Below the pieces are notes generated by a model. The model did no database searches, had not been told where the DNA came from, and saw only the letters and a list, made by a program, of their open reading frames with translations. Positions 2,887 to 24,141 of a DNA stretch of 24,141 nucleotides are shown piece by piece; position 1 is the stretch's first letter; every line of letters starts with the position of its first letter. The translations under genes were made by a program, and so were the position numbers. The stretch spans positions 1-24,141 of the forward strand of contig JBBDLY010000306.1 of assembly GCA_040878585.1 (NCBI GenBank), given 5' to 3'. The DNA comes from Pirellulales bacterium. GTDB taxonomy: Bacteria; Planctomycetota; Planctomycetia; Pirellulales; UBA7805.

Positions 2887-4275
2887 CTAGCGATCGACAC
2901 TTAGGTCCGCCGCGGGCAACTGCCGCTCAATGGCATCGTTTCGATACCCAAATCCGGTTGAGCCGATCGTGGAAAGTTCGACCACGCCGTTGCGCCGTCG
3001 ATAGAGGCCGCCGTGGACCTGGCACTCCGGCTCCGAGGCGTCCGGATAGAACTGCATCGCATTGCACTCGACCCCCATTATGGTGGATGCCGCGGCCGCC
3101 AGCCTCACGTGCGGGATCATGGCCAGCATGGGATTCGTGAGATCCTGGACCATCAACGGCATGCCATGGGCCTTCGCCCAGCAGAGGCTCAGTATCGCCC
3201 CCGACTGGGTCTTGCAGGTTTTTAGCGCCACACCGGACCATCCCAGTTCGCGTCCGAGTCGCACGTAAGACCAGTCGTGGGCGCTTTCGTCCAGGAACAA
3301 AGGCTTGCGGGCGGAGAGGCCGTGGACGTCGATGCGGTGGGCCGACAAATCGTAGGGAAACGGTTGCTCGACGTAAAGCAGCATGCCGTAGATCCGCGGC
3401 GCGTCGTCGCGCAATTGATCTAGTATCTCATTGACGTAACTTGGATCGGTGACCGTGCAGTTGAAGTCGGTCGACAGCCATTGTACTCCCTCTTCGACGC
3501 CCAGTCGCCCGACGCGCAGAATGCGATCGTAGTCCCACGCGCGGTCGTTGCCACGCAGCTTGATTTTGAGGCAGGTAAGCCCGTCGGAACGAATCCAGTC
3601 CCGCAGCAATACAGGAAAACCATCGCGGGGCGCGTCTGCGGATAGTTCCTTTTCGTCGAGCGGATCAAGTCCGCCCACTAGATGCCAACACGGCAGACGC
3701 GAGGGCGGGGGCTGGACGAGAAAATCGGCCGGGTAGAGGCCGCGAAAATCGACGTCGCAGCCGGCGGCCGGTTCGAGATACGCCGATAGATCCTGCTCAA
3801 AAAAGTCCTTGCTGTAGGTTTGATAGACGTCCAGCCCGTGCAGTTCGGCGAAGGCGTCGTGCAAGGCGATATCAAAGACGCTGCAAACGATCAGAGCCGC
3901 CAGCAGGGGTATCGGCTCGGGCAACTGCAATGACTCGGCTGTTTCGGCCATCACCGAGGGGAGGACTTCGCGCTGAAAGCGGTGGCCGATCTCCAGCGGG
4001 TGCCCGGTCGCCGCAAAGTCGTGCCAGGCGACCGCCAGTCGCCGACTGAGGTGCAATAAGGCTTCGTGCCTTTGCGTGTAGGGCAATCGACTGGGCCAGC
4101 CCCACTGCACCGACAACGGCGTCTCTCCCCAACCGGTCCCGCGTCGATACTGGCTATCTTCCACGGTCATCGCCACCCGCAGGCAGGTTACCGTGGTCAA
4201 CGTCTCGCTGCCGAACTTGAGCGGCACGCGGGTCTGCACCGGAAGCAGGTAGTTTTGGACGGCGAGGATTCTCAT
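2887..4275 (-). CDS. Enolase-superfamily enzyme (mandelate racemase/muconate lactonizing-like), substrate unknown
   Basis: GETPLS N-domain motif, DIALHD, KxK (LKIKL), metal-ligand pattern TDFN / VEQP / LDES, and LKTCK. ATG at 4275 (MRILAVQNY) is preferred; the extension to 4392 runs through a repeat element. Confidence 0.8.
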   Translation of the reverse strand: MRILAVQNYLLPVQTRVPLKFGSETLTTVTCLRVAMTVEDSQYRRGTGWGETPLSVQWGWPSRLPYTQRHEALLHLSRRLAVAWHDFAATGHPLEIGHRFQREVLPSVMAETAESLQLPEPIPLLAALIVCSVFDIALHDAFAELHGLDVYQTYSKDFFEQDLSAYLEPAAGCDVDFRGLYPADFLVQPPPSRLPCWHLVGGLDPLDEKELSADAPRDGFPVLLRDWIRSDGLTCLKIKLRGNDRAWDYDRILRVGRLGVEEGVQWLSTDFNCTVTDPSYVNEILDQLRDDAPRIYGMLLYVEQPFPYDLSAHRIDVHGLSARKPLFLDESAHDWSYVRLGRELGWSGVALKTCKTQSGAILSLCWAKAHGMPLMVQDLTNPMLAMIPHVRLAAAASTIMGVECNAMQFYPDASEPECQVHGGLYRRRNGVVELSTIGSTGFGYRNDAIERQLPAADLSVDR

Positions 4276-4558: not shown

Positions 4559-6877
4559 GTGCTTCAGGTGATCCTCGCATTTTTTGGCCTCGGCCGCACC
4601 GATGCGCGTTCGCGCAAGCAGTTCCGGCTGGTGCTGCGATGGCTGGCGCCGTTGATTGCGCTGGGACTGTTTATTTACTTTGCCCGGTTTGTTCCCCTGG
4701 TGGCCGCCGGGGAACGATTCGTGGTACCGTTGCCCTGGGAGGCGACCGTCGGCGGGGTCGCGGTCTCGCTCGATCTGCTGATTGATGGACTGTCTTTGTT
4801 ATTCGCCCTGATCGTCTCCGGGATCGGCTGCCTGGTATTTCTATATGCTGGCAGCTACATGGGGGACGACGAACGTACTTCGCGGCTATTTCTCTGGTTG
4901 CTGGCGTTCATGGCCTCCATGTTGGGATTGGTGCTGTCCAGCAACCTGTTCGGCATGTTCCTGTTCTGGGAACTCACCGGCATCACCTCCTACATGCTCA
5001 TCGGATTCAATCAAGACGAGGAAAGCTCGCGCGCCTCGGCGCTGCAAGCGCTGCTAGTGACCGGCGTGGGCGGTTTAGCATTGTTGGCCGGTTTCACCAT
5101 GCTGGCGGTAATCGGCGGTGGCTCCGACGTGGTGGACCTACGGCAATCGACGGCGGCGATTGCCGCCTCGCCGCTGTACATTCCGATGATCGCCTTGATC
5201 CTGCTCGGCGCTTTCACCAAGAGCGCCCAGTTCCCGTTTCATTTCTGGTTGCCTGGGGCGATGGCCGCACCCACGCCGGTGAGCGCCTATCTGCATTCGG
5301 CGACCATGGTCAAGGCCGGCATCTTTCTTGTCGCCCGCCTGACTCCCGTCACAGGCGACACGACCGTCTGGATTGCGACCATTACCCTCGTCGGCACGGC
5401 CACCGCCCTGGTCGGCGGCTGGCTTGCCTGGCAGCAGAGCGATTTGAAACGGATCCTCGCCTACTCGACCGTCAGCGCCTTGGGTATGATCATGGCGCTG
5501 CTGGGCGTCGGCTCGCCCCTTGCGGTCAAGGGAGCACTCACGTTCCTGCTGGCCCACGCCTTGTATAAGGGCGCGTTGTTCATGGTTGCCGGCAGCGTCG
5601 ACCATGGCAGCCACACTCGCGACATCAACGAACTTGCCGGATTGCTCAAGAAGATGCCGTGGACGTTCGCCGCCGCCGCAATGGCCGCGGTGTCGCTCGC
5701 CGGATTGCCTCCAACAATGGGTTTTCTTGGCAAGGAAGTTGATTTCGAGGCCGCGCTGGAAAGCGAGTATGCCCTATGGCTGACCTCCGCCTTGATGGCG
5801 GCCAGCTTCGGCTTTGTCGTGGTGGCGTCGTTGGTGGCGATTAGGCCGTTCTTCGGCGCCGCGACTGCCGCGGCGGAAGACGCCCACGAATCGCCCCCGA
5901 CGATGCTGGCGGGGCCGCTTCTATTGAGCATCGCGGGACTCTGTCTGGCGTTCTATGCGGGTTGGTTCGGAGAAACATTTATTTCCGCCGCGATGAGCGA
6001 GACGCTCGGCACGCCGCACGTCGCCAAGTTGGCGCTGTGGCACGGCGTGAACACGCCGTTGTTGCTTAGCGCCGGCTCATTCGCGGTCGGACTGGTGCTC
6101 TACGCGATGCGCGATCGGCTGTTGTCGGCGGCCGCCCCCTTCGGAGTGCTCGCCGCGATCGGCCCCGCAGCCGTTTATCGGGGGTTGCTCGCCGGGCTGA
6201 AATGGTTTGCCAACGCGCAAACCCGAGTGATTCAGAACGGTCGGTTGAGCATCTATATTCTTTGCACCGGCATAACATTAATCACGCTGTTGGCCGCCTC
6301 GTGGTGGTTCCGCGTCGGTACGATCGAAACGGCCGATGGTCCGCGAGTGAAACTCTACGAGCTGATGATTTGTGGCATGATGCTGGCCGCGGCAATTTTT
6401 GTTACCAAGACAGGTTCCCGACTGGCGGCCATCTGCCTGCTTGGTTCGGTCGGCTACGGCATCTCGATCTTGTTTCTGCTGTTCGCGGCGCCCGATCTGG
6501 CCATGACTCAATTGGCCATTGAAACCTTGACCGTCATCTTGTTCGTCTTCGTGCTGTACCGCTTACCGCGTTTCAAGCGATACACCTCCACCCTCGTGAG
6601 GGCGCGGGACGGCTTGATCGCGATCGGGTTCGGCACGATCATGGCGGTGCTGGCGTTCAGCGTGGCCGAACACGCCATCGACCCGTCCGAGAAGGAACTG
6701 ACGGACGGCATTAATCGGATGGCCTATCCCGAGGGGCGCGGTCGCAACGAAGTAAACGTGATTCTGGTTGACTTTCGCGCGCTCGATACGCTTGGCGAAA
6801 TCACCGTGCTCTCAATCGCCGCCATTGGCATTCTCGCGCTGTTGCGGCTGCGATTGGGAGAGGAGCGCGAAGCATGA
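4559..6877 (+). CDS. mrpA: Na+(cation)/H+ antiporter subunit A (MrpA/MnhA)
   Basis: NuoL/MrpA motifs [49 protein letters not shown] and [10 protein letters not shown]; C-terminal APDLAMTQ and [10 protein letters not shown]. In-frame GTG at 4559 is preferred over 4400 because it lies downstream of the promoter; start uncertain. Confidence 0.93.
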
Positions 6878-7714: not shown

Positions 7715-9243
7715 TGGAATGGCTGCCGATATTGCCGATCTTGATACCGCTGGCGACCGCAGTCGGTTGCTTGTTGGCCTGGGGGCGCGTCGGCGCTCAG
7801 CAAACGATCAGCCTGGCCGGATCGCTCTTGCTGTTTGCCGCTTCGGTGTTGCTGCTGCTGGTGGTCGACCGAGACGGTATTCAAGTGCTCGGGGTGGGAG
7901 ACTGGCGTCCGCCGTTTGGAATCGTGCTGGTCATCGATCGCCTAAGCGCACTGATGGTCTTGCTGGCTGGCGTGCTGGCGCCCTGCATAGTGACCTACGC
8001 CGTGGTCGCCATCGACGACAGGCGACAGCATTTCGGCTTTCATGTGCTGCTGCAAACGCTGTTTCTGGGTGTTTGCGGCGCATTCACCACGGGCGATCTG
8101 TTCAATTTGTATGTCTGGTTCGAGGTGCTGCTGATCTCGTCGTTCGTGCTGGTCGCCCTCGGCGGCGAACGGGCGCAATTGGAAGGCGCCATCAAATACG
8201 TGACGCTCAACTTGCTCTCTTCGATTACATTTCTGGCTGCCGTCGGCATTATCTATGCCGTGACCGGCACGCTGACCATGGCCGACATCGCCCGCTCGAT
8301 TACCGCCGGATCGCCGCAACCGATGGCCACCGTCGCCGCCAGCATGTTGCTGGTCGCCTTCGGGATTAAAGCGGCCGTATTTCCGGTTTTTTACTGGCTG
8401 CCGGCTTCGTATCATACGCCGCCGATCGCGGTCGGGGCCGTGATGGCCGGCCTGATGACCAAGGTTGGCGTCTACTCCCTGGTCCGCGTGTACACCTTGA
8501 TCTTCTCGCACGAACAACCGTACGCCGGTCCGCTGCTCGCCTGGTGCGCGGCACTGACCATGATCGTCGGCGTGCTGGGGGCGGCCGCGCAGGGAGACAT
8601 CCGCCGTATTCTGGCGTTTCACAGCATCAGCCAAGTAGGCTACATGATTCTTGGCCTGGCGATCTTTACTCCGCTGGCGCTCGCCGGCACGATGGTCTAC
8701 ATCGTCCATCACGGGCTGGTGAAGACCAACTTGTTTCTCATCGCCGGTCTGATTCATCGCGTCGGCGGCAGCTATCAGCTCAATCGGCTGGGTGGGTTGT
8801 ATACGAGCTTTCCGGGGCTGGGATTGTTGTTTCTAGTGGTTGCCATGTCGCTGGCCGGAATACCGCCGTTGAGTGGCTTCTGGGCTAAGTTGGCACTGGT
8901 CATTGCCTCCGTCGAGACGCACCATTGGTGGCTGCTCGCCTCCGCCTTGGGCGTGAGCTTGCTGACACTGTTCTCGATGGTCAAGATCTGGGCGGAAGCA
9001 TTCTGGAAGCCCATGCCCCAGATGACGCCGGCCGACAACGAGTTTCCCGAGGCGTATGACGATGAACCGGATATTCCTCCCACCAGGGTCTCCTGGCTGG
9101 CGATGACGCTCCCTTGCGTGGTGTTGGCGGCGGCGATGATCGCCGTCGGCGTATTCGCCGGACCGGTGTTTGAGTTTGCCGAGCGGGCGGCCGAGGAACT
9201 GTTAAATCCGCAAGTCTATATCGAGGCGGTCTTTCCCGTATGA
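7714..9243 (+). CDS. mrpD: Na+/H+ antiporter subunit D (MrpD)
   Basis: [37 protein letters not shown] and [14 protein letters not shown] motifs; TAATG overlap with mrpC. Confidence 0.93.
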
Positions 9244-10070
9244 ACCCAACACACGACTATTTGCAACTGGCGGAAAAGACGATCGTCGTGTTTGGCGTTG
9301 CCAACCGTAAGAGCGTCGCCTGGCATGTCGCCATGCAACTGGAGCAGGTCGGCGCAACGGTGCTGTATGTTGTTCGCAACGCGCAGCGGAGGCAATCGAC
9401 CGCCAAGTTGCTCGCCGGCCGCGAGGTATTCGAGTGCGACGTCGAGCACGAGGATCAAATCGCGCGGGTGCGCGACGAAATCGCACAACGGCATCCGGTC
9501 GTCCACGGCCTGGTCCATTCGATCGCCTTCGCCGAATATGAGGGTGGCGTGAAGCCGTTTCACGAGACTCTCAAGCGAGAGTTTCTTCGCGCGGTCGATA
9601 TATCCTGCTACTCGCTATTGGCGATTAGCAATGCATTTCAGGGATTGCTCGACAAGCAAGCCTCGGTGGTGACGATCTCTATCTCAACCACGCGGATGGC
9701 GAGCGAGAACTACGGCTATATGGCGCCAGTCAAGGCGGCGCTCGATTCGTCGCTGGCCTTTCTCACCAAGTCGTTCAGCAATTTCTCCGAAGTGCGCTTC
9801 AACGCCGTTGCTCCCAGCTTGCTGAAAACGTCCGCCTCGGCCGGAATTCCAGGCTACGTCGACTCGTATCTGCATGCTGAGAAAGTCATTCCCCGCAAAC
9901 GGGCAGTGCAAACCGAGGAGGCCGCCAGTACGGCCGTGTTCCTGCTCAGTCCGCGATCCAGCGGCATCACGGCGCAAAGCATTGTGGTCGACGCCGGGAT
10001 GTCGATCAACTATTTTGATCGGGACGTGATAGGCGATTCGTCCGTCCGTGGAGAGTCGTCGGCGGACTAG
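9240..10070 (+). CDS. fabI: Enoyl-ACP reductase FabI-like SDR
   Basis: [13 protein letters not shown]-binding loop, VHSIAFA, DISCYSL, catalytic Y-x6-K (YGYMAPVK), and VDAG near the C-terminus. ATGA overlap with mrpD. Family is clear; orthology to the housekeeping fabI is not. Confidence 0.75.
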
Positions 10071-10100: not shown

Positions 10101-11272
10101 CCACTCGCTGCGGCGATTTCTTCGACCGCCGCGGCCAACTGCTCTAGATGTTCCCGCGTGTTGAATGGCCCTAGGCTGACGCGGACGGTTCCACCCAGCG
10201 GGAGCGAGCAGATCGACTGGTGAATCAGCGGCGCGCAGTGCAAGCCGCTGCGGACCTCGATGCCGTACTGGCTATCGAGTAAGGCGGCAACTTCCTGCGG
10301 GTCGAAACCGGCGATGTTGAAACTCAACACCGCTACCGATTGACTGGGGTCTTGCGTGCCATACAGCGTAACGGCGTCGATCGACCGCAGTCGCTCGATC
10401 AACTCGCCCAGTAGAGAGCGCTGCCGGTCGCGCAGCGCCTCGACCCCTTGCGACTCGAGCCAGGCGATCCCCGCCGCCAGGCCGGCCAGGCCGGGGACGT
10501 TGTGATTCCCCGCCTCGAACTTGAACGGCATCGTTTGGGGATGTCGGGGCGACTCGCTCTCCGTGCCCGTGCCTCCGAAACGGCTGGGAGTGAGGTGGTC
10601 CTCCAAACCGGGCCGCAGATAGAGCACGCCGGTTCCCAGCGGCCCCAACAAGCCTTTATGACCGCTGCCGACAACGACGTCGAACGGCAGTTGCTGGACG
10701 TTTAACGGTTCGTGGCCAAGAGTCTGCGCGGCGTCGAGAATGGTCCGCACGTCGTATTGCTGAGCCATTTCTAGAATCTGCTCCAGCGGCTGGATCGTGC
10801 CGGTCACGTTGGAGGCGTGCGTGACGACCAGCAGATCCGCCCCCCGAGCAAAGGCGCTCTCTAGTTTATGGAGTTTGACGCGGCCCTCGACGTCGCAGCC
10901 GACCGCCTCGAGCATTTTGGCTTGCGGATGGGTTTCGTACCACCACTGCAACGGCCGATGGACCGAGTTGTGATCGGCGGCCGTGGTGGCTACGTACTCG
11001 GCATGGGGAATCATGCCGCTGATGGCGAGATTCAGCACGTCGGTGCCGTTGAAGCCGAATGCAATGCGGGCCGGTTGCTCGGCGCCAATCAGTTTCGCCA
11101 TGCGACGCCGGGCGTCCTCCACGATTTGTGCGGCAGCGAGCGAGCTATCGTACGAGCCTCGGCCGGCCGAAGCGCCGTTGTCGCGCATCGTGGTCAACAC
11201 CGCCTCCAGCACGCTGGGCGGCTTGGGCCAACTTGTGGCGGCGTTGTCGAGGTAGATGCGATCCGGTTTCAT
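10097..11272 (-). CDS. PLP-dependent cysteine desulfurase family protein (class V aminotransferase, group II-like)
   Basis: IYLDNAATSWPKP, HASNVTG, DAAQ, SGHKGLLGP (PLP Lys) and RSGLHCAP (catalytic Cys). ATG at 11272; the extension to 11551 overlaps moaA. Confidence 0.88.
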   Translation of the reverse strand: MKPDRIYLDNAATSWPKPPSVLEAVLTTMRDNGASAGRGSYDSSLAAAQIVEDARRRMAKLIGAEQPARIAFGFNGTDVLNLAISGMIPHAEYVATTAADHNSVHRPLQWWYETHPQAKMLEAVGCDVEGRVKLHKLESAFARGADLLVVTHASNVTGTIQPLEQILEMAQQYDVRTILDAAQTLGHEPLNVQQLPFDVVVGSGHKGLLGPLGTGVLYLRPGLEDHLTPSRFGGTGTESESPRHPQTMPFKFEAGNHNVPGLAGLAAGIAWLESQGVEALRDRQRSLLGELIERLRSIDAVTLYGTQDPSQSVAVLSFNIAGFDPQEVAALLDSQYGIEVRSGLHCAPLIHQSICSLPLGGTVRVSLGPFNTREHLEQLAAAVEEIAAASG

Positions 11273-19783: not shown

Positions 19784-20626
19784 ATGAGTCATGGACACCC
19801 GCAAGCGGCCGAAACGCCCATCTCCCTGCAGCCGCGGGAGGGCTGGCATTGCCTGCATATTTACTATGCCTTCGACCGCGCAATGCTCAACGACTTCGCC
19901 GAGTACGAGATTGCCTCCGGACGGATGGACCTGATCGACATTCTCGATCCCCAGCAGGAGTTGTCTCCAGCGCGGCTGCAAACCTCGATCGTCTCGGGAC
20001 ATAAGGCCGATTTCGGCCTGATGATGATGGACCCCGACCCGCTCAAGCTCGATCGCGTCCATCAACGCCTGATGGCCAGCCCGTTGGGTTTGACACTTGA
20101 GCCGACCTACTCCTACGTTTCGATCAGCGATATCTCGGAATACGTGCCGAGCGTCGAGCAATATGGCAAGCGATTGGTCGAAGAGGGGGAGGCCGAAGGG
20201 AGCGCCGCGTACCTGGCGAAGCTCAAAGCCTACGAGCAGCGCGAAACGATGATGCGCAAACAGCGGCTGACGCCCGACTTTCCCGACTGGCCCGCCACCT
20301 GCTTTTATCCCATGAATAAAATGCGCCTACCGGGCGCGAACTGGTTCATGCTCGACTTTGAAACTCGCAATAAACTAATGGCTGAGCACGGCCGCAGCGG
20401 CATGAAGTTCGGCGGCAAGGTCACCCAGTTGATCACCGTCGGCGTAGGGCTTGACGATTGGGAGTGGGGCGTCACGCTGTGGGCCAAGAACCCGGAGTAT
20501 CTCAAGGAGATCGTCTACACCATGCGGTTCGACGAGGCGAGCGCCGCCTACGCCGAGTTTGGACCGTTCTATACGAGCTACGTCAGCACCGCTGAAAAAA
20601 TTCTCGACCATTGCGAGATTCGGTAA
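19784..20626 (+). CDS. chdC: Coproheme decarboxylase (ChdC/HemQ)-like, chlorite dismutase superfamily
   Basis: EGWHCLH, YSYVS, CFYPMNK, NWF, LMAEHG (proximal His), KVTQLIT (distal Gln), GLDDWEWGVTL and MRFDEASA. ATG at 19784 is preferred over 19706. Confidence 0.78.
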   Translation: MSHGHPQAAETPISLQPREGWHCLHIYYAFDRAMLNDFAEYEIASGRMDLIDILDPQQELSPARLQTSIVSGHKADFGLMMMDPDPLKLDRVHQRLMASPLGLTLEPTYSYVSISDISEYVPSVEQYGKRLVEEGEAEGSAAYLAKLKAYEQRETMMRKQRLTPDFPDWPATCFYPMNKMRLPGANWFMLDFETRNKLMAEHGRSGMKFGGKVTQLITVGVGLDDWEWGVTLWAKNPEYLKEIVYTMRFDEASAAYAEFGPFYTSYVSTAEKILDHCEIR

Positions 20627-20632
20627 AGCACC

Positions 20633-21205
20633 TCAGCCGACCTTCATTCGCTCGACCAATTGACGCCAGTTTTTACAGGACCATTCCAGTGACGGCGGGA
20701 GAGGGGGGTTCGATTGCATTCGTGCACATCGCTCGGCGAGTTTGTTGGCGGCATCGGCAACGGCTTTATTGTGCTTTACGCGTGGCCCTTCTACGCTTTC
20801 ATCTGTGGCGCCGTCGTTGAGATATTGAATCCAATTCTCCAGTCGGTCCTTGGCAAAAATAAAGACAACACCATCGAACTGTTCTTGGGTAATGCCTTCG
20901 GCCTCGGCTATTTCCCAAAACTTCGCCTTTAGTTGATCGCCGTTCTTCATGTCGTCGTCGAGGTCCGCCCAAACCAACAGGGCCGTCTTTGCGCCCGCAT
21001 TCAAACATGCTCTCAACTCTTGAGGCATTCTTGCCATCAATTCCTTACGGCCGCCACAATCAACCGGTCTCAACAGGTTGCTTCCCTTGAACGGCCTGAT
21101 CCAAGCCGGCTTGAGCGAGCGAATGAGTCGGTTAATGAAGACGGGGTCGATACTGCGCCCTTTCTTCCCCTCGTGAAGGCAGACAATTTGGGTTCGACTA
21201 GCCAC
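20633..21205 (-). CDS. Hypothetical TOPRIM-like protein, partner of the ATPase
   Basis: GTG at 21205 overlaps the ATPase stop (GTGGCTAG). Pattern: IVCLHEG...D, CGG, LLVWADLD (DxD), RLENW. Confidence 0.7.
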   Translation of the reverse strand: MASRTQIVCLHEGKKGRSIDPVFINRLIRSLKPAWIRPFKGSNLLRPVDCGGRKELMARMPQELRACLNAGAKTALLVWADLDDDMKNGDQLKAKFWEIAEAEGITQEQFDGVVFIFAKDRLENWIQYLNDGATDESVEGPRVKHNKAVADAANKLAERCARMQSNPPLPPSLEWSCKNWRQLVERMKVG

Positions 21206-22310
21206 CAACCCACCCCCGGGCAATCGCTTCTCCTGCTGAAATGCCAGCCGGAAACTTTAGCGGTCCAATTCGAGTTGGAGAAGTATGATTGTCGCGCCAC
21301 AGATAGTTGCCGCACTCTGCGCCAGCGCTTCCAAGGATCTCTGGATGATGTGAGATCAAAATCGCTTGATGCTCTGTGTCGAGCAATTCGCGCATTGCGA
21401 TTACCCATGGCTGCAACTCTGGCAAACCAACGTAATTGTCCGGCTCGTCGATCAAAACAATGTCGGCCGCACTGGTTTCGGCTGCAGCACGAATCATATA
21501 AAGGCCAACCAGCATTTTCTCACCATCCGAAAGCTGATGAAAGTAAAGTGGTTTTGTCTCATGTCCCAGCGCAGCGTCGAACCGAAGTTGTAGTGCTTTC
21601 GCATTCAAGCCAACATCAACGAGCTTAAACGACTTGAAATCCGGCCATACATTTTGCAGGGAATCTCGCAATACGTCGGTCCACTCTTGTTCCTGCGAAA
21701 GTGAACGATACCAGGAAAGTAAATTAGAGAGGTTCAGCGATGGTTGCCGCGACTCGCTTCTGCTTTCCGATTCCATGCCGAGCGGGTTCGGACGCAGGAT
21801 GAGAATCTTAGCCAGCGCCTCCTGTAAAATCTGAATGTCACTCGACGCGCCTGTTGGTTGAATCGCTCCTAAGGCTGCTTGTCGCCAGTCGAGTGGAAAG
21901 CCCGATTGAGTTCCGTCGGGTCGCGTAAAGGTCACGCCATCCAGATCACGAAAAAATAGTTGGCGACTATCACAGGTAGCGCTTTCCTTGATGATGCGCG
22001 GCTTCACGTCGTCGCGAACTTGTTCGAGGTGGAGTTTGTACTCAAACTCGTGTCCTCTTGCCTGAATCGTAAGCTCGAACTCCTGAGTTGTACTATTTAT
22101 CCAATTGCTAAACTCAAGCTCGGCGACGTCCTGTGGCCCGCCGCCGCCTAAGTTTGCTTTTGATGTTCCTAGATCGCGGATCAGTTTCAATACGTCGAAT
22201 ACGGAACTCTTGCCGGAACCATTCGGTCCGCAAAGTATTCCGAACGAGTCGAATGTCGCCTCGAATGCCACGAGGCATCGAAAGTTGTTTGCGTATAGTC
22301 GTGTAATCAT
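21198..22310 (-). CDS. ABC/AAA-type ATPase (AAA_15/AAA_21-like)
   Basis: MITRLYANNFRCL N-terminus, Walker A GPNGSGKS, signature LSDGE, Walker B IVLIDEPD and H-loop ISHHP; no TM segments. Confidence 0.9.
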   Translation of the reverse strand: MITRLYANNFRCLVAFEATFDSFGILCGPNGSGKSSVFDVLKLIRDLGTSKANLGGGGPQDVAELEFSNWINSTTQEFELTIQARGHEFEYKLHLEQVRDDVKPRIIKESATCDSRQLFFRDLDGVTFTRPDGTQSGFPLDWRQAALGAIQPTGASSDIQILQEALAKILILRPNPLGMESESRSESRQPSLNLSNLLSWYRSLSQEQEWTDVLRDSLQNVWPDFKSFKLVDVGLNAKALQLRFDAALGHETKPLYFHQLSDGEKMLVGLYMIRAAAETSAADIVLIDEPDNYVGLPELQPWVIAMRELLDTEHQAILISHHPEILGSAGAECGNYLWRDNHTSPTRIGPLKFPAGISAGEAIARGWVGG

Positions 22311-22425
22311 GAACCTACGCTTTTAAGCGTTCCCGTCGTTCAAGAAGCCATAGACGTCACCATCAGTTTATCGCACAGCGGTTGTCTATGCTACTGGCTG
22401 ATTGCTGCGAGCGCCGGGCCGCGGA

Positions 22426-24141
22426 TCATTCGGCGGACGATGACTTATTGTTCGTTTTGCGGTTGGATGTTTTTTCAGCGTTGCCACTAGGGCTGCTGCT
22501 ACCACGCCGTCCGCCGTTGTCGCTAGGCTCGATCAGCGGCTCGCCGCCACTGTCGTCGATGAGGATAATCGGTCCGCTGCTTGCTGACGACGCAGTGGGC
22601 TTCGCTTCCGGCAGCGGCTCGCTCGGCTGCGGGTTCTCGGATTCGGCTGAGTAAAACAGCACGCTCGAAATGCGTCGCTCTGTTTTCTCAATCAACGGAC
22701 TGTAGGCCAGACTGTACAGCACTGGCACCACCACCAAGGTCAGCAGCGTGGCCATTGCCAGTCCGTACACGACCGCCGCGCAAAGCGGTTGCCAAAACTC
22801 CGCGCCGCCCGACCAGTTTCCCAGCAGCGGCAATAGCCCCCCCATGGTCGTCACGGTCGTTAGCAGCACCGGTCGCAGGCGATTGACCCCCGCTTCGACA
22901 ATGGCGTCGTTGATCGCCATGCCGCGACGCCGCGCCCGATTGGCGAAATCGACCAGCACGATCGAGTCGTTGACGACGATGCCGGTCAGGCTGACCAATC
23001 CGATAAACGACGCTAAAGAGAAGGGAAAGCCCATGATCCAGTGGCCCACGATCACGCCAATGAAGCTCAACGGCACCGCCGACAGCACGATCATGGTTTG
23101 GCGAAAGCTGTTGAACTGCAACACCAAGATCGCGAAGATCAGAATCACGGCGATGGCCATCGCGTTGAGCAAGTAGGCAAAGTTCTTGTCCCGTTCCTCG
23201 TTCTCGCCGGTGAAAATGGCGCGGACTCCGTCGGCTTCCGTGCCGGGTGCGCCGAGAAAGGCAATCGCGTGGGCCTCCTGCGGATCTTTGCCCAGCAGGC
23301 TTAATATCCAGTTCCGCGTATTTTGCACGACCGCCATCACCCCGACCGGCCGTGGCGGCGGAACCGGGCGAAAGCCGAGTTCGGGCAGGATCTCCGCGCG
23401 CAACTGTTGGAACACGTCGTCCGGCTTCAGGCCGTTCTTCACGTCGCACTTGGCCAAGACCGCACGGCTTCGGTCGCGGCGATTAACGGAAAACAGGCCC
23501 ATATCGCGATGGATTTCGGTTAAGGTTCCAATCGGCGCCCGCTGCCCGCTGGGACTGACGATCATCAGCCGTTCCACGTCCTCCTTGGACCGCTGGAACT
23601 CCGGCGCCACTTGCAGCCGCACCGTCACATCTTCCTTTTCCAGTGGCAGTTCGATTGTCGTATCTCCAAGAATCGCCGTGGCGACCGATTGGGCGACCTG
23701 CGCCTCGGTCATTCCGTACAGACCGACCACCGCGGCGTTCGGCTCGACGACGATCTCGGGACTATCGGGGCGGTAGTCGGTCCGCGCGTCGGCGACGTTT
23801 GGGATTTGGGCGAATCGCGCTGTGATCTGTTCGGCATATCGGCCCAACCGTTCCACGTTGTCGCCGGTCAGGCGCACCGCTACGTCAGCGCCGCCGGGTG
23901 GCCCGTCTTGCGGTTGTTCAATCAGGATCTTGATGCCCGGCCATGGCTTCATGTTGGCGCGAATCTGCTTCTCGACGTCGTTGATATGTCGCTTTCGATC
24001 CAACGGTGAAGTGAGCTGCACCATCACGGTGCCAAACTCCGGCCCAGCCGCGGAGTCTCCCTCGAGGCGGCTGGCCAGTCCTTCCGAGGAGCCGATCGAG
24101 GTCACGTAGTGCAGCACCTCGCCCGATTGTTGTAAGTCGCG
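22426..24141 (-). CDS. RND efflux permease (AcrB/CzcA-like), 5'-truncated by the window edge
   Basis: LQFNSFRQTMIVLSAVPLS, GIVVNDSIVLVD and RLRPVLLTTVTTMGGLLPL. The frame stays open to position 24141. Confidence 0.9.
   Translation of the reverse strand, partial: RDLQQSGEVLHYVTSIGSSEGLASRLEGDSAAGPEFGTVMVQLTSPLDRKRHINDVEKQIRANMKPWPGIKILIEQPQDGPPGGADVAVRLTGDNVERLGRYAEQITARFAQIPNVADARTDYRPDSPEIVVEPNAAVVGLYGMTEAQVAQSVATAILGDTTIELPLEKEDVTVRLQVAPEFQRSKEDVERLMIVSPSGQRAPIGTLTEIHRDMGLFSVNRRDRSRAVLAKCDVKNGLKPDDVFQQLRAEILPELGFRPVPPPRPVGVMAVVQNTRNWILSLLGKDPQEAHAIAFLGAPGTEADGVRAIFTGENEERDKNFAYLLNAMAIAVILIFAILVLQFNSFRQTMIVLSAVPLSFIGVIVGHWIMGFPFSLASFIGLVSLTGIVVNDSIVLVDFANRARRRGMAINDAIVEAGVNRLRPVLLTTVTTMGGLLPLLGNWSGGAEFWQPLCAAVVYGLAMATLLTLVVVPVLYSLAYSPLIEKTERRISSVLFYSAESENPQPSEPLPEAKPTASSASSGPIILIDDSGGEPLIEPSDNGGRRGSSSPSGNAEKTSNRKTNNKSSSAE

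Follow-up and report, generated by a model that had tools for sequence, protein, structure and literature searches.

A divergent HEC-01-like pair of ABC ATPase and TOPRIM-fold genes, recently inserted in a Pirellulales genome: a candidate defence cassette

A pair of overlapping genes on the 24,141-nucleotide (nt) contig JBBDLY010000306.1, which belongs to assembly GCA_040878585.1 of a Pirellulales bacterium (Planctomycetota; UBA7805) from a sediment metagenome, encodes an ATPase of the ATP-binding cassette (ABC) type of 370 amino acids (aa) and a small protein of 190 aa with a predicted TOPRIM fold. We refer to the whole contig, which was analysed at its full length, as the window. Judged by sequence comparison the pair is a divergent branch of HEC-01, a catalogued candidate anti-phage pair, and not a new type of system. 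It is a real accessory ATPase-nuclease cassette of the defence type, in the class of HEC-01, Mad3-Mad4, AbiL and PARIS, and its function is inferred. The reading we favour and consider fairly probable is that of two genes gained horizontally as a self-contained cassette, within the class 'ABC ATPase + TOPRIM nuclease' of prokaryotic conflict systems. New in the present analysis are the divergent subfamily, which is largely missed by present models, a site available in clean filled and empty forms, and the hsdS-tail repeats that flank the embedded copies.

Pairs in which an ABC ATPase is joined by a TOPRIM protein are among the commonest candidate bacterial immune modules, and a worked-out mechanism has been given only for PARIS; the HEC-01/DUF4276 branch is without demonstrated activity. 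The clade described here comprises around 900 proteins, chiefly from bacteria of the PVC (Planctomycetes-Verrucomicrobia-Chlamydiae) group. Pfam does not detect it and PADLOC hardly does, so that current defence censuses count too few of its members in Planctomycetes and Verrucomicrobia. The pair is compact and highly conserved, which suits biochemical and structural work. In the following, G000 denotes the window's own assembly (77% complete), L007 the locus in the window, and G401 (locus L050) a genome of the same genus.

The ATPase

The preliminary description of the window, made from the sequence alone, had listed Walker A, LSDGE, Walker B and H-loop elements in the 370-aa protein. All of these were recovered, together with a Q-loop: a Walker A motif G28-PNGSG-K34-S, a Q-loop with Q76, the signature L260-SDGE, a Walker B motif ending in D288-E289 and an H-loop with H321-H322. 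The set fits the SMC/Rad50-like clade of ABC ATPases and is invariant in 19 homologues with identities down to 31%, as is a C-terminal element E361..A364-R-G-W367. On the basis of these motifs the protein has a catalytically complete-looking ABC site. The Pfam matches were AAA_21 (7.8e-14), AAA_15 and SMC_N. Among the PADLOC models the best match was HEC-01A PDLC04178 (E 3.4e-21, 73.8 bits; residues 2-352 on positions 9-357 of the 399 of the profile); two more HEC-01A models matched with E 1e-19 to 1.9e-18, and these were followed by PDC-M25A, mad3, AbiLi, AriA and PtuA. The AlphaFold (AF2) model of the ATPase has a pLDDT (predicted local distance difference test) score of 88, and its best folds in the PDB are the Rad50 heads (Foldseek E 6e-13) and the PtuA proteins of retron/Septu systems.

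The small TOPRIM-fold protein

Also for the partner, the motifs that had been described beforehand are present in TOPRIM order, being E12-G13...D20, G51-G52, D81-L-D83 and L122-E123, and the acidic site is conserved. The residues E12, G13, D20, D81, D83, E123, E136, C160 and C177 are invariant in 66 close relatives, and in an alignment of 47 sequences that reaches down to around 22% identity E12 and D81 remain invariant, with D83 and E123 conserved in at least 90%. In the AF2 model (pLDDT 91.6) a strand at residues 7-11 is followed by E12, and a strand at residues 75-82 (strand 3) ends in D81-x-D83. The predicted structure fits the three-layer alpha/beta arrangement of the TOPRIM superfamily, with a Glu after strand 1 and a DxD after strand 3, and its succession of strands and acidic residues is that of a TOPRIM domain. 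The highest scores in an exhaustive alignment to the PDB were obtained for the TOPRIM region of the Thermus OLD protein (6p74; Z 8.3) and for Burkholderia OLD (6nk8; Z 7.2), followed by PH0156 (2p62; Z 6.8) and AriB (8v46_D; Z 5.7). In the ESM Atlas a template modelling (TM) score of 0.81 was found to a cluster auto-named DUF4276, of 0.64 to a true PF14103 cluster and of 0.57 to DUF3226, and the clusters matched in the AFDB comprised DUF4276, DUF4435 and Toprim proteins. Combined with the Pfam and Foldseek matches of the ATPase, the exhaustive PDB alignment and the ESM Atlas support the earlier proposal of an ABC-type ATPase with a TOPRIM-fold partner.

The small protein has no Pfam match (E <= 1) and no NCBIfam match, and a search of the PDB sequences with the hidden Markov model (HMM) of the family returned nothing meaningful. 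Its sole PADLOC HEC-01B match is marginal (PDLC04202; E 1.6e-3, 16.6 bits, residues 57-131), and it probably escapes calling by PADLOC. A phmmer/HMMER search of 1.8 billion representative proteins recovered a tight family and then a tail of proteins of 175-190 aa, the distant relatives in this tail being 22-32% identical to the small protein (E 1e-13 to 1e-4). When the 47 relatives were compared with the model libraries, HEC-01B was matched by 23 (best 1.6e-7), mad4 by 12 (best 2.5e-7), DUF3226 by 11, DUF4276 by seven and OLD-like_TOPRIM by two (best 0.0078); single relatives matched DUF4435 (E 0.023) and AbiLii (8.4e-5). The distant relatives would in this way provide a chain of homology from the small protein to HEC-01B, mad4, DUF3226 and DUF4276. 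The family has a specific two-helix C-terminal tail, with C160, P170-x-S-L, W175-S-C177 and W180 invariant. Given the fold matches and the weak family scores, the assignment of a TOPRIM fold stands and direct membership of a described family does not. We read the small protein as a separate family inside the DUF3226/DUF4276/OLD TOPRIM-like group.

Relation to known systems

HEC-01 (Hma-embedded candidate 01; PADLOC-DB v2; Payne et al.) has been described as an ABC ATPase with a TOPRIM protein that carries an OLD-like metal site (10.1101/2024.01.29.577857). Like the window pair it consists of an ABC ATPase gene followed by a small TOPRIM-like gene. HEC-01 is found inside larger defence systems, a position that some relatives of the window pair have and the window copy has not. 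Three HEC-01A models are matched by the window ATPase over nearly the full length, which makes it a good match to gene A, and it can be taken as a HEC-01A protein. The differences lie in the partner, which reaches one HEC-01B model only (E 1.6e-3), and in the context, as the host systems here are type I restriction-modification (R-M) systems or none, not Hma. The idea that the module might be unclassified was not borne out: its architecture is catalogued as HEC-01 in PADLOC, with the ATPase at E 3.4e-21 and relatives of the small protein matching HEC-01B and mad4. It had also been anticipated that a match to an existing model would remove the novelty; this holds for the ATPase, which matches strongly, but hardly for the small partner, which is matched marginally (1.6e-3) and is missed by Pfam.

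Methylation-associated defence (MADS) likewise combines an AAA_15/21 ABC ATPase, Mad3, with a TOPRIM-like DUF4276 partner, Mad4. The window ATPase matches PADLOC mad3 at 5.4e-16 and, with its N-terminal part, NCBIfam MAD3 at 2.9e-12, but the latter score of 46.5 bits compares with a cut-off of 420 bits, the window small protein has no mad4 match, and there are no other MADS genes in the window (the search for them covered the flanks). AbiL, with an ABC ATPase (AbiLi) and a small TOPRIM-like protein (AbiLii), is similar in layout, and the window ATPase matches AbiLi at 3.3e-14, whereas the small protein has no direct match to an AbiLii or RloB model. The rloA/rloB genes sit inside type I R-M loci, and the placement of the pair in its relatives may parallel that of the rlo genes. 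RloB has been listed among the Toprim proteins and connected with type I R-M (PMC12065111). Published ATPase trees, in which AbiL and MADS3-4 fall among the ATPase-TOPRIM systems, have the HEC-01 architecture next to Mad3/Mad4 and AbiL (PMC11464382), and it has been placed in one group with Mad3/Mad4, AbiL, PARIS and OLD (PMC11464382, PMC12065111).

PARIS (AriA/AriB), to which the preliminary description had likened the pair, is the best-studied analogue, in which an ATPase scaffold frees the nuclease once a trigger is sensed. As in the window, the ABC ATPase and the TOPRIM effector are encoded by separate genes (PMC11464382), the window ATPase matches AriA models at around 4e-14 to 9e-14 (one match split in two, best over residues 1-60, another over residues 25-326), and AriB is among the structural matches of the small protein. 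Nevertheless AriB is a DUF4435 protein of around 35 kDa, compared to a protein of 190 aa without DUF4435 match, and AriA has a size of around 53-55 kDa with insertion sequences that build the hexamer, compared to an ATPase of 370 aa. Membership of PARIS was rejected, considering the lack of a DUF4435 match, the Z score of only 5.7 for AriB and the HEC-01A match (3.4e-21) that is stronger than that to AriA (4e-14). The OLD and GajA proteins share the Glu / DxD / Glu arrangement, and the OLD TOPRIM regions are the best solved structural matches. Yet the ABC ATPase and TOPRIM parts are fused in these proteins and reside on two polypeptides here, the OLD-like_TOPRIM match is marginal and confined to two of the 47 relatives, and the window protein has its own two-helix C-terminus.

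With DUF4276 (PF14103) and DUF3226 (PF11536) the small protein shares the fold class, as indicated by the TM scores of 0.64 and 0.57 and by PH0156, but neither the protein nor its close family matches the models of these two, and the DUF4276 signature H-E-F-E-A-L-L-F after strand 4 is replaced by F-A-K-D-R-L-E-N-W. Membership of DUF4276 was rejected on the absence of a Pfam match and a weak hhalign result. A search of the whole of G000 with PF14103 at 1e-8 returned nothing. Canonical DUF4276 genes (PF14103) were found in 38 of 301 genomes of the phylum, often in several copies per genome. As these genes are common in the phylum, the divergent family coexists with ordinary DUF4276; genome G210, for instance, carries the divergent pair and four PF14103 matches.

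A filled and an empty insertion site

The window copy is a recent insertion, which is foreign in composition and absent from the same site in a genome of the same genus. Its GC content is 52.1% over the cassette and 60.8% in the rest of the window, and the GC content at third codon positions is 52-60% in the cassette and 75-76% in the neighbouring genes. In G401 the gene order FolE-LonN-DUF309-HemQ-AcrB is that of the window without the cassette, the flanks are 94.8% and 94.4% identical at the DNA level, and the site measures 19 nt, compared to 1805 nt in the window (Table 1). A second sediment metagenome yielded an independent contig that covers positions 20360-23001 and thereby both junctions, which makes an assembly artefact untenable. 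The cassette is flanked by a HemQ-like gene and an AcrB-family gene. No ABC permease is present, as had been noted before, and the neighbouring AcrB-family gene is also found in the cassette-free G401. A function as ABC transporter was rejected on these grounds, as there is no permease and the adjacent resistance-nodulation-division (RND) gene predates the insertion.

The filled and empty sites thus document the recent gain of a bare 1.8-kb cassette, in which no mobility gene is present. A search for flanking repeats or target duplications around it gave only matches of 10-15 nt that are consistent with chance. One of these is a 15-nt inverted repeat (14 of 15 positions complementary) at 20586-20600 and 22470-22484, some 40 nt outside either end of the cassette and inside the flanking genes, whose arm at 22470-22484 is not the same as its counterpart in G401; chance is the probable explanation. 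The AcrB-family protein of the window and that of G401 have different low-complexity C-terminal tails (22426-22528, minus strand), and in the window the stop codon is at the edge of the inserted DNA. Since high-identity homology to G401 resumes only at 22529, some 30 codons at the end of the gene were altered by the insertion or by later insertions and deletions.

Linkage, distribution and decay

In every related locus for which upstream sequence is available (around 30), the small gene is directly preceded by the ATPase gene, including four remote pairs in which the ATPase is around 31-34% identical to that of the window. The linkage of the homologues, on which the original proposal hinged, is therefore strict. 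The identities of the two proteins covary (r = 0.87 for 24 loci, the rows of which are not independent). At least 20 related loci share the identical 8-nt overlap of the two genes, in which the small-gene GTG is located 2 nt ahead of the ATPase TAG (GTGGCTAG), and such an overlap implies translational coupling. As far as can be read from these loci, the two genes are translationally coupled and always co-inherited.

The relatives are sporadic over at least four phyla and decay freely. Close matches were found in three of 401 genomes of the phylum (<1%), the window's own genome included, and 26 loci with 56-78% identity were distributed over Planctomycetota, Verrucomicrobiota (including Akkermansia), Acidobacteriota and one Thiocapsa. 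Decay affects either gene. In L002 and L024 the ATPase gene is frameshifted and the small gene intact, and the reverse, a broken small gene with an intact ATPase gene, is seen in L036 (frameshift), L023 (stop at codon 56) and L037 (interrupted by an insertion sequence), while L039 retains a remnant stump of both genes. The insert in L037, on the chromosome of Pirellulaceae bacterium SH449, has a length of around 1.5 kb and splits the small TOPRIM gene; it carries a transposase-like open reading frame (ORF) of 478 aa (8482-9918, minus strand), and residues 20-38 of the small protein are duplicated on either side of it.

Association with type I restriction-modification

Of the Pfam families found in a survey of the 127 ORFs around 25 related loci, Methylase_S (HsdS) and the HSDR_N, SWI2_SNF2 and ResIII families of HsdR were the most frequent, with five each, followed by N6_Mtase, TIR_2, Peptidase_M78 and a second AAA_15/21 ATPase, with two each. 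Embedding in a type I R-M operon was observed for five of the 25 loci, four with an intact hsdR and one (L035) with a truncated hsdR, and it is in these relatives that the defence association assumed at the outset is seen. In the Verrucomicrobial relatives the pair is located between hsdS and hsdR, and the order in L033 is hsdM, hsdS, a gene with an FRG domain, the pair, an M78 peptidase gene, a small ORF and hsdR. The C-terminus of HsdS (...AAVTGKIDVR...) is encoded, in 13 loci, by a reading frame whose end meets the ATPase ATG. This frame is of full length in L031 and L034 and has been reduced to a stub of 25-147 aa or a degenerate stub in the other loci; such stubs also occur at sites without any R-M genes (L003, L018 and L025).

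The 3' end of hsdS is moreover repeated. In L021 there are three 105-nt direct repeats of the hsdS tail, two of them identical (1272-1376, 3348-3452 and 5182-5286), in L031 a 72-nt direct repeat with 89% identity (2307-2378 and 4182-4253), and in L034 a 41-nt direct repeat with 98% identity (8216-8256 and 10571-10611). In Verrucomicrobial type I R-M loci such repeats, with identities of 76-100%, bracket each gene or cassette that is embedded between hsdS and hsdR, and the downstream start abuts the stop codon of the repeat. Next to the pair, L021 (5297-7024) and L028 (6828-8555) carry a second ATPase gene (575 aa; AAA_15/AAA_21) that is preceded by an hsdS-tail repeat. No remnant of an hsdS tail was found at the window locus. 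A text search of the paper on HEC-01 returned no mention of hsdS or such repeats (10.1101/2024.01.29.577857).

In a tree of the two concatenated proteins, rooted on the remote pairs, the tail-less Planctomycete clade of the window (SH-like approximate likelihood-ratio test (SH-aLRT) support 98) nests in a grade of tail-bearing Verrucomicrobial copies. Support values along the grade are only 81-85 (SH-aLRT), and an unresolved basal polytomy includes two tail-less Planctomycete copies. The most parsimonious reading, which is moderately supported and not proven, is that the window's clade formerly resided inside type I R-M operons, later escaped and now works alone. No HsdS or HsdR match was found in G173, a 99% complete genome in a single contig with an intact pair, nor in the window's own assembly with its 77% completeness. 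By the G173 case, the pair is independent of a resident type I R-M system. The embedded relatives between hsdS-tail repeats suggest a candidate trigger, the loss of restriction, and a route of cassette movement. More explicitly, though as a tentative and rather doubtful idea, the hsdS 3' end, which encodes ...AAVTGKIDVR, could serve in the type I R-M loci of Verrucomicrobiota as a repeated docking and translational-coupling site, at which defence cassettes, the present pair among them, are stacked, swapped and exported by homologous recombination, integron-like but without an integrase; the window clade would then stem from a cassette that escaped, shed the tail and turned autonomous, and the pair would originally have guarded the restriction enzyme.

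Possible mechanism and alternative readings

By analogy with PARIS, OLD/Gabija and PrrC a mechanism can be sketched that we hold to be likely in outline. The ATPase would dimerise around ATP and bind the small nuclease, keeping it inactive or targeting it. A cue linked to infection would shift the state of the ATPase; it could be a protein of the phage, ends of foreign DNA or the loss of restriction, the last as in PrrC and PARIS. The Mg2+-dependent TOPRIM nuclease would then cut nucleic acid, either DNA like OLD/GajA or tRNA like AriB, and this cleavage would halt the replication of the phage, with the infected cell probably sacrificed.

Several observations weigh against a defence cassette of this kind. 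The only HEC-01 representative to have been assayed protected E. coli against none of the phages tested (10.1101/2024.01.29.577857). The neighbours are housekeeping genes and not defence islands, in the window as well as in most Planctomycete loci, and with 56-83% identity across phyla the pair is unusually conserved for a defence system. The alignment of the 19 ATPase homologues revealed no obviously hypervariable sensor segment. Foldseek returned only flavodoxin-like folds from the PDB for the small protein (lumazine synthase, E around 1e-2), and the TOPRIM link surfaced only via the exhaustive aligner and the AFDB and Atlas libraries. The likeness to solved TOPRIM nucleases is modest, at Z scores of 7-8, a range that the aligner flags as possibly generic. 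The protein stays below the DUF4276 gathering threshold, and when 13 bona fide DUF4276 proteins of the phylum were compared with it by hhalign, the probability was 1-9%. Finally, a modelled TOPRIM fold with its acidic residues is no proof of nuclease activity. As the high conservation and the lack of a variable segment sit oddly with a sensor in an arms race, three other readings were kept, at low to modest probability.

The most serious of these is a restriction guard following the logic of PrrC and PARIS, in which the pair is functionally tied to a type I R-M enzyme. Held latent by this enzyme, or able to sense anti-restriction proteins, it would fire once restriction is blocked, the stand-alone copies being orphaned or served by an R-M system elsewhere. 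The reading would explain why in L031 and L034 the pair is placed between hsdS and hsdR and its ATG adjoins the stop of hsdS, why shorter hsdS tails are found directly upstream in 11 further loci, and why the tail-bearing copies form the grade from which the tail-less clade of the window emerges. There are precedents in PrrC, which is 'almost exclusively embedded in type I RM' (10.1101/2024.01.29.577857), and in PARIS, which senses the anti-restriction protein Ocr (PMC11464382). This reading is nevertheless unlikely, considering the G173 genome with its intact pair and no HsdS or HsdR_N match, the same absence in the window's incomplete assembly, and a nine-row Planctomycete clade in which both genes are intact without an hsdS remnant. 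Against it also stand the lack of resolution at the basal nodes of the tree and the support of only 81-85 SH-aLRT along the grade.

A selfish cassette of the toxin-antitoxin (TA) kind, with the small nuclease as toxin, the ATPase as neutraliser and persistence by post-segregational killing instead of phage defence, would fit the tight coupling of the two genes, their mobile and patchy spread and the absence of a defence-island context in Planctomycetes, and AAA_21 carries the Pfam label 'putative AbiEii toxin, type IV TA'. That label is a family name and not evidence, however, and the decay in either order (ATPase in L002 and L024; small gene in L036, L037 and L023) misfits a strict asymmetry of toxin and antidote. 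In addition, an upstream, larger and enzymatically complete ABC ATPase is atypical as an antitoxin, and we regard this reading as improbable. Still less credit is given to a housekeeping pair for DNA repair or maintenance that loads onto or processes DNA structures and has no role in conflict. RecF is an ABC ATPase and RecR a small TOPRIM protein, a pairing that mirrors the one in the window; the ATPase has a weak N-terminal match to RecF (TIGR00611; 9.8e-6), its best solved folds are Rad50 heads, and the sequence conservation is high. The RecF match is limited to residues 2-40 in the P-loop region, however, at 25 bits compared to a family cut-off of 172 bits. A distribution over less than 1% of the sampled genomes of the phylum, the absence at the same site in the same-genus genome, the foreign composition, the repeated pseudogenes and the embedding in R-M operons make a housekeeping role very improbable.

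Layout of the locus and minor observations

The features of the locus are collected in Table 1. Both ORFs were found on the minus strand at the positions given by the preliminary description. The GTG start of the small gene is at 21205-21203 and its stop at 20635-20633; a longer form starting with TTG at 21223 is possible. The GTG start is favoured, given that the homologues have a length of 187-191 aa and an N-terminus MA(S/N)RTQIVCLHEG, and that the 8-nt overlap is shared.

Table 1. Positions of the gene pair and associated features in the window, and relatives embedded in type I R-M operons
Feature	Position	Strand	Remarks
ABC-type ATPase (Rad50/PtuA-like, AAA_21/AAA_15)	21198..22310	minus	370 aa, ATG start; presumed sensor/regulator subunit
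Small TOPRIM-fold protein	20633..21205	minus	190 aa, GTG start; presumed metal-dependent nuclease effector
8-nt gene overlap (GTGGCTAG)	21198..21205	minus	read directly from the sequence
Inserted DNA compared to the same-genus genome	20627..22431	.	both genes and around 120 nt upstream of the ATPase; boundaries good to around 10 nt
Spacer between AcrB-family stop and ATPase start	22311..22425	minus	115 nt; presumed promoter/ribosome-binding site region, or read-through from the upstream gene
Relatives with the pair inside type I R-M			L021, L028, L031, L033, L034, L035

A scan of the window cassette for promoters and terminators gave nothing above the expectation from shuffled sequences, and this holds for any sigma-70-like site in the spacer. 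One minus-strand hairpin is present at 20618-20602, in flanking DNA that is common to the empty site. Among the Planctomycete copies no conserved non-coding ends were found beyond a ribosome-binding site of the GGAG type, and the spacer is likewise not conserved. The locus was present in only two DNA runs, both of sediment metagenomes; no RNA runs holding the locus were found, and no contigs with the empty-site form were seen. The variant from the second sample has 14 differences from the window in around 105 nt of the AcrB-family gene (window positions 22816-22921), compared to four across the 1.68-kb cassette, and this clustering suggests a recombination patch in the flank.

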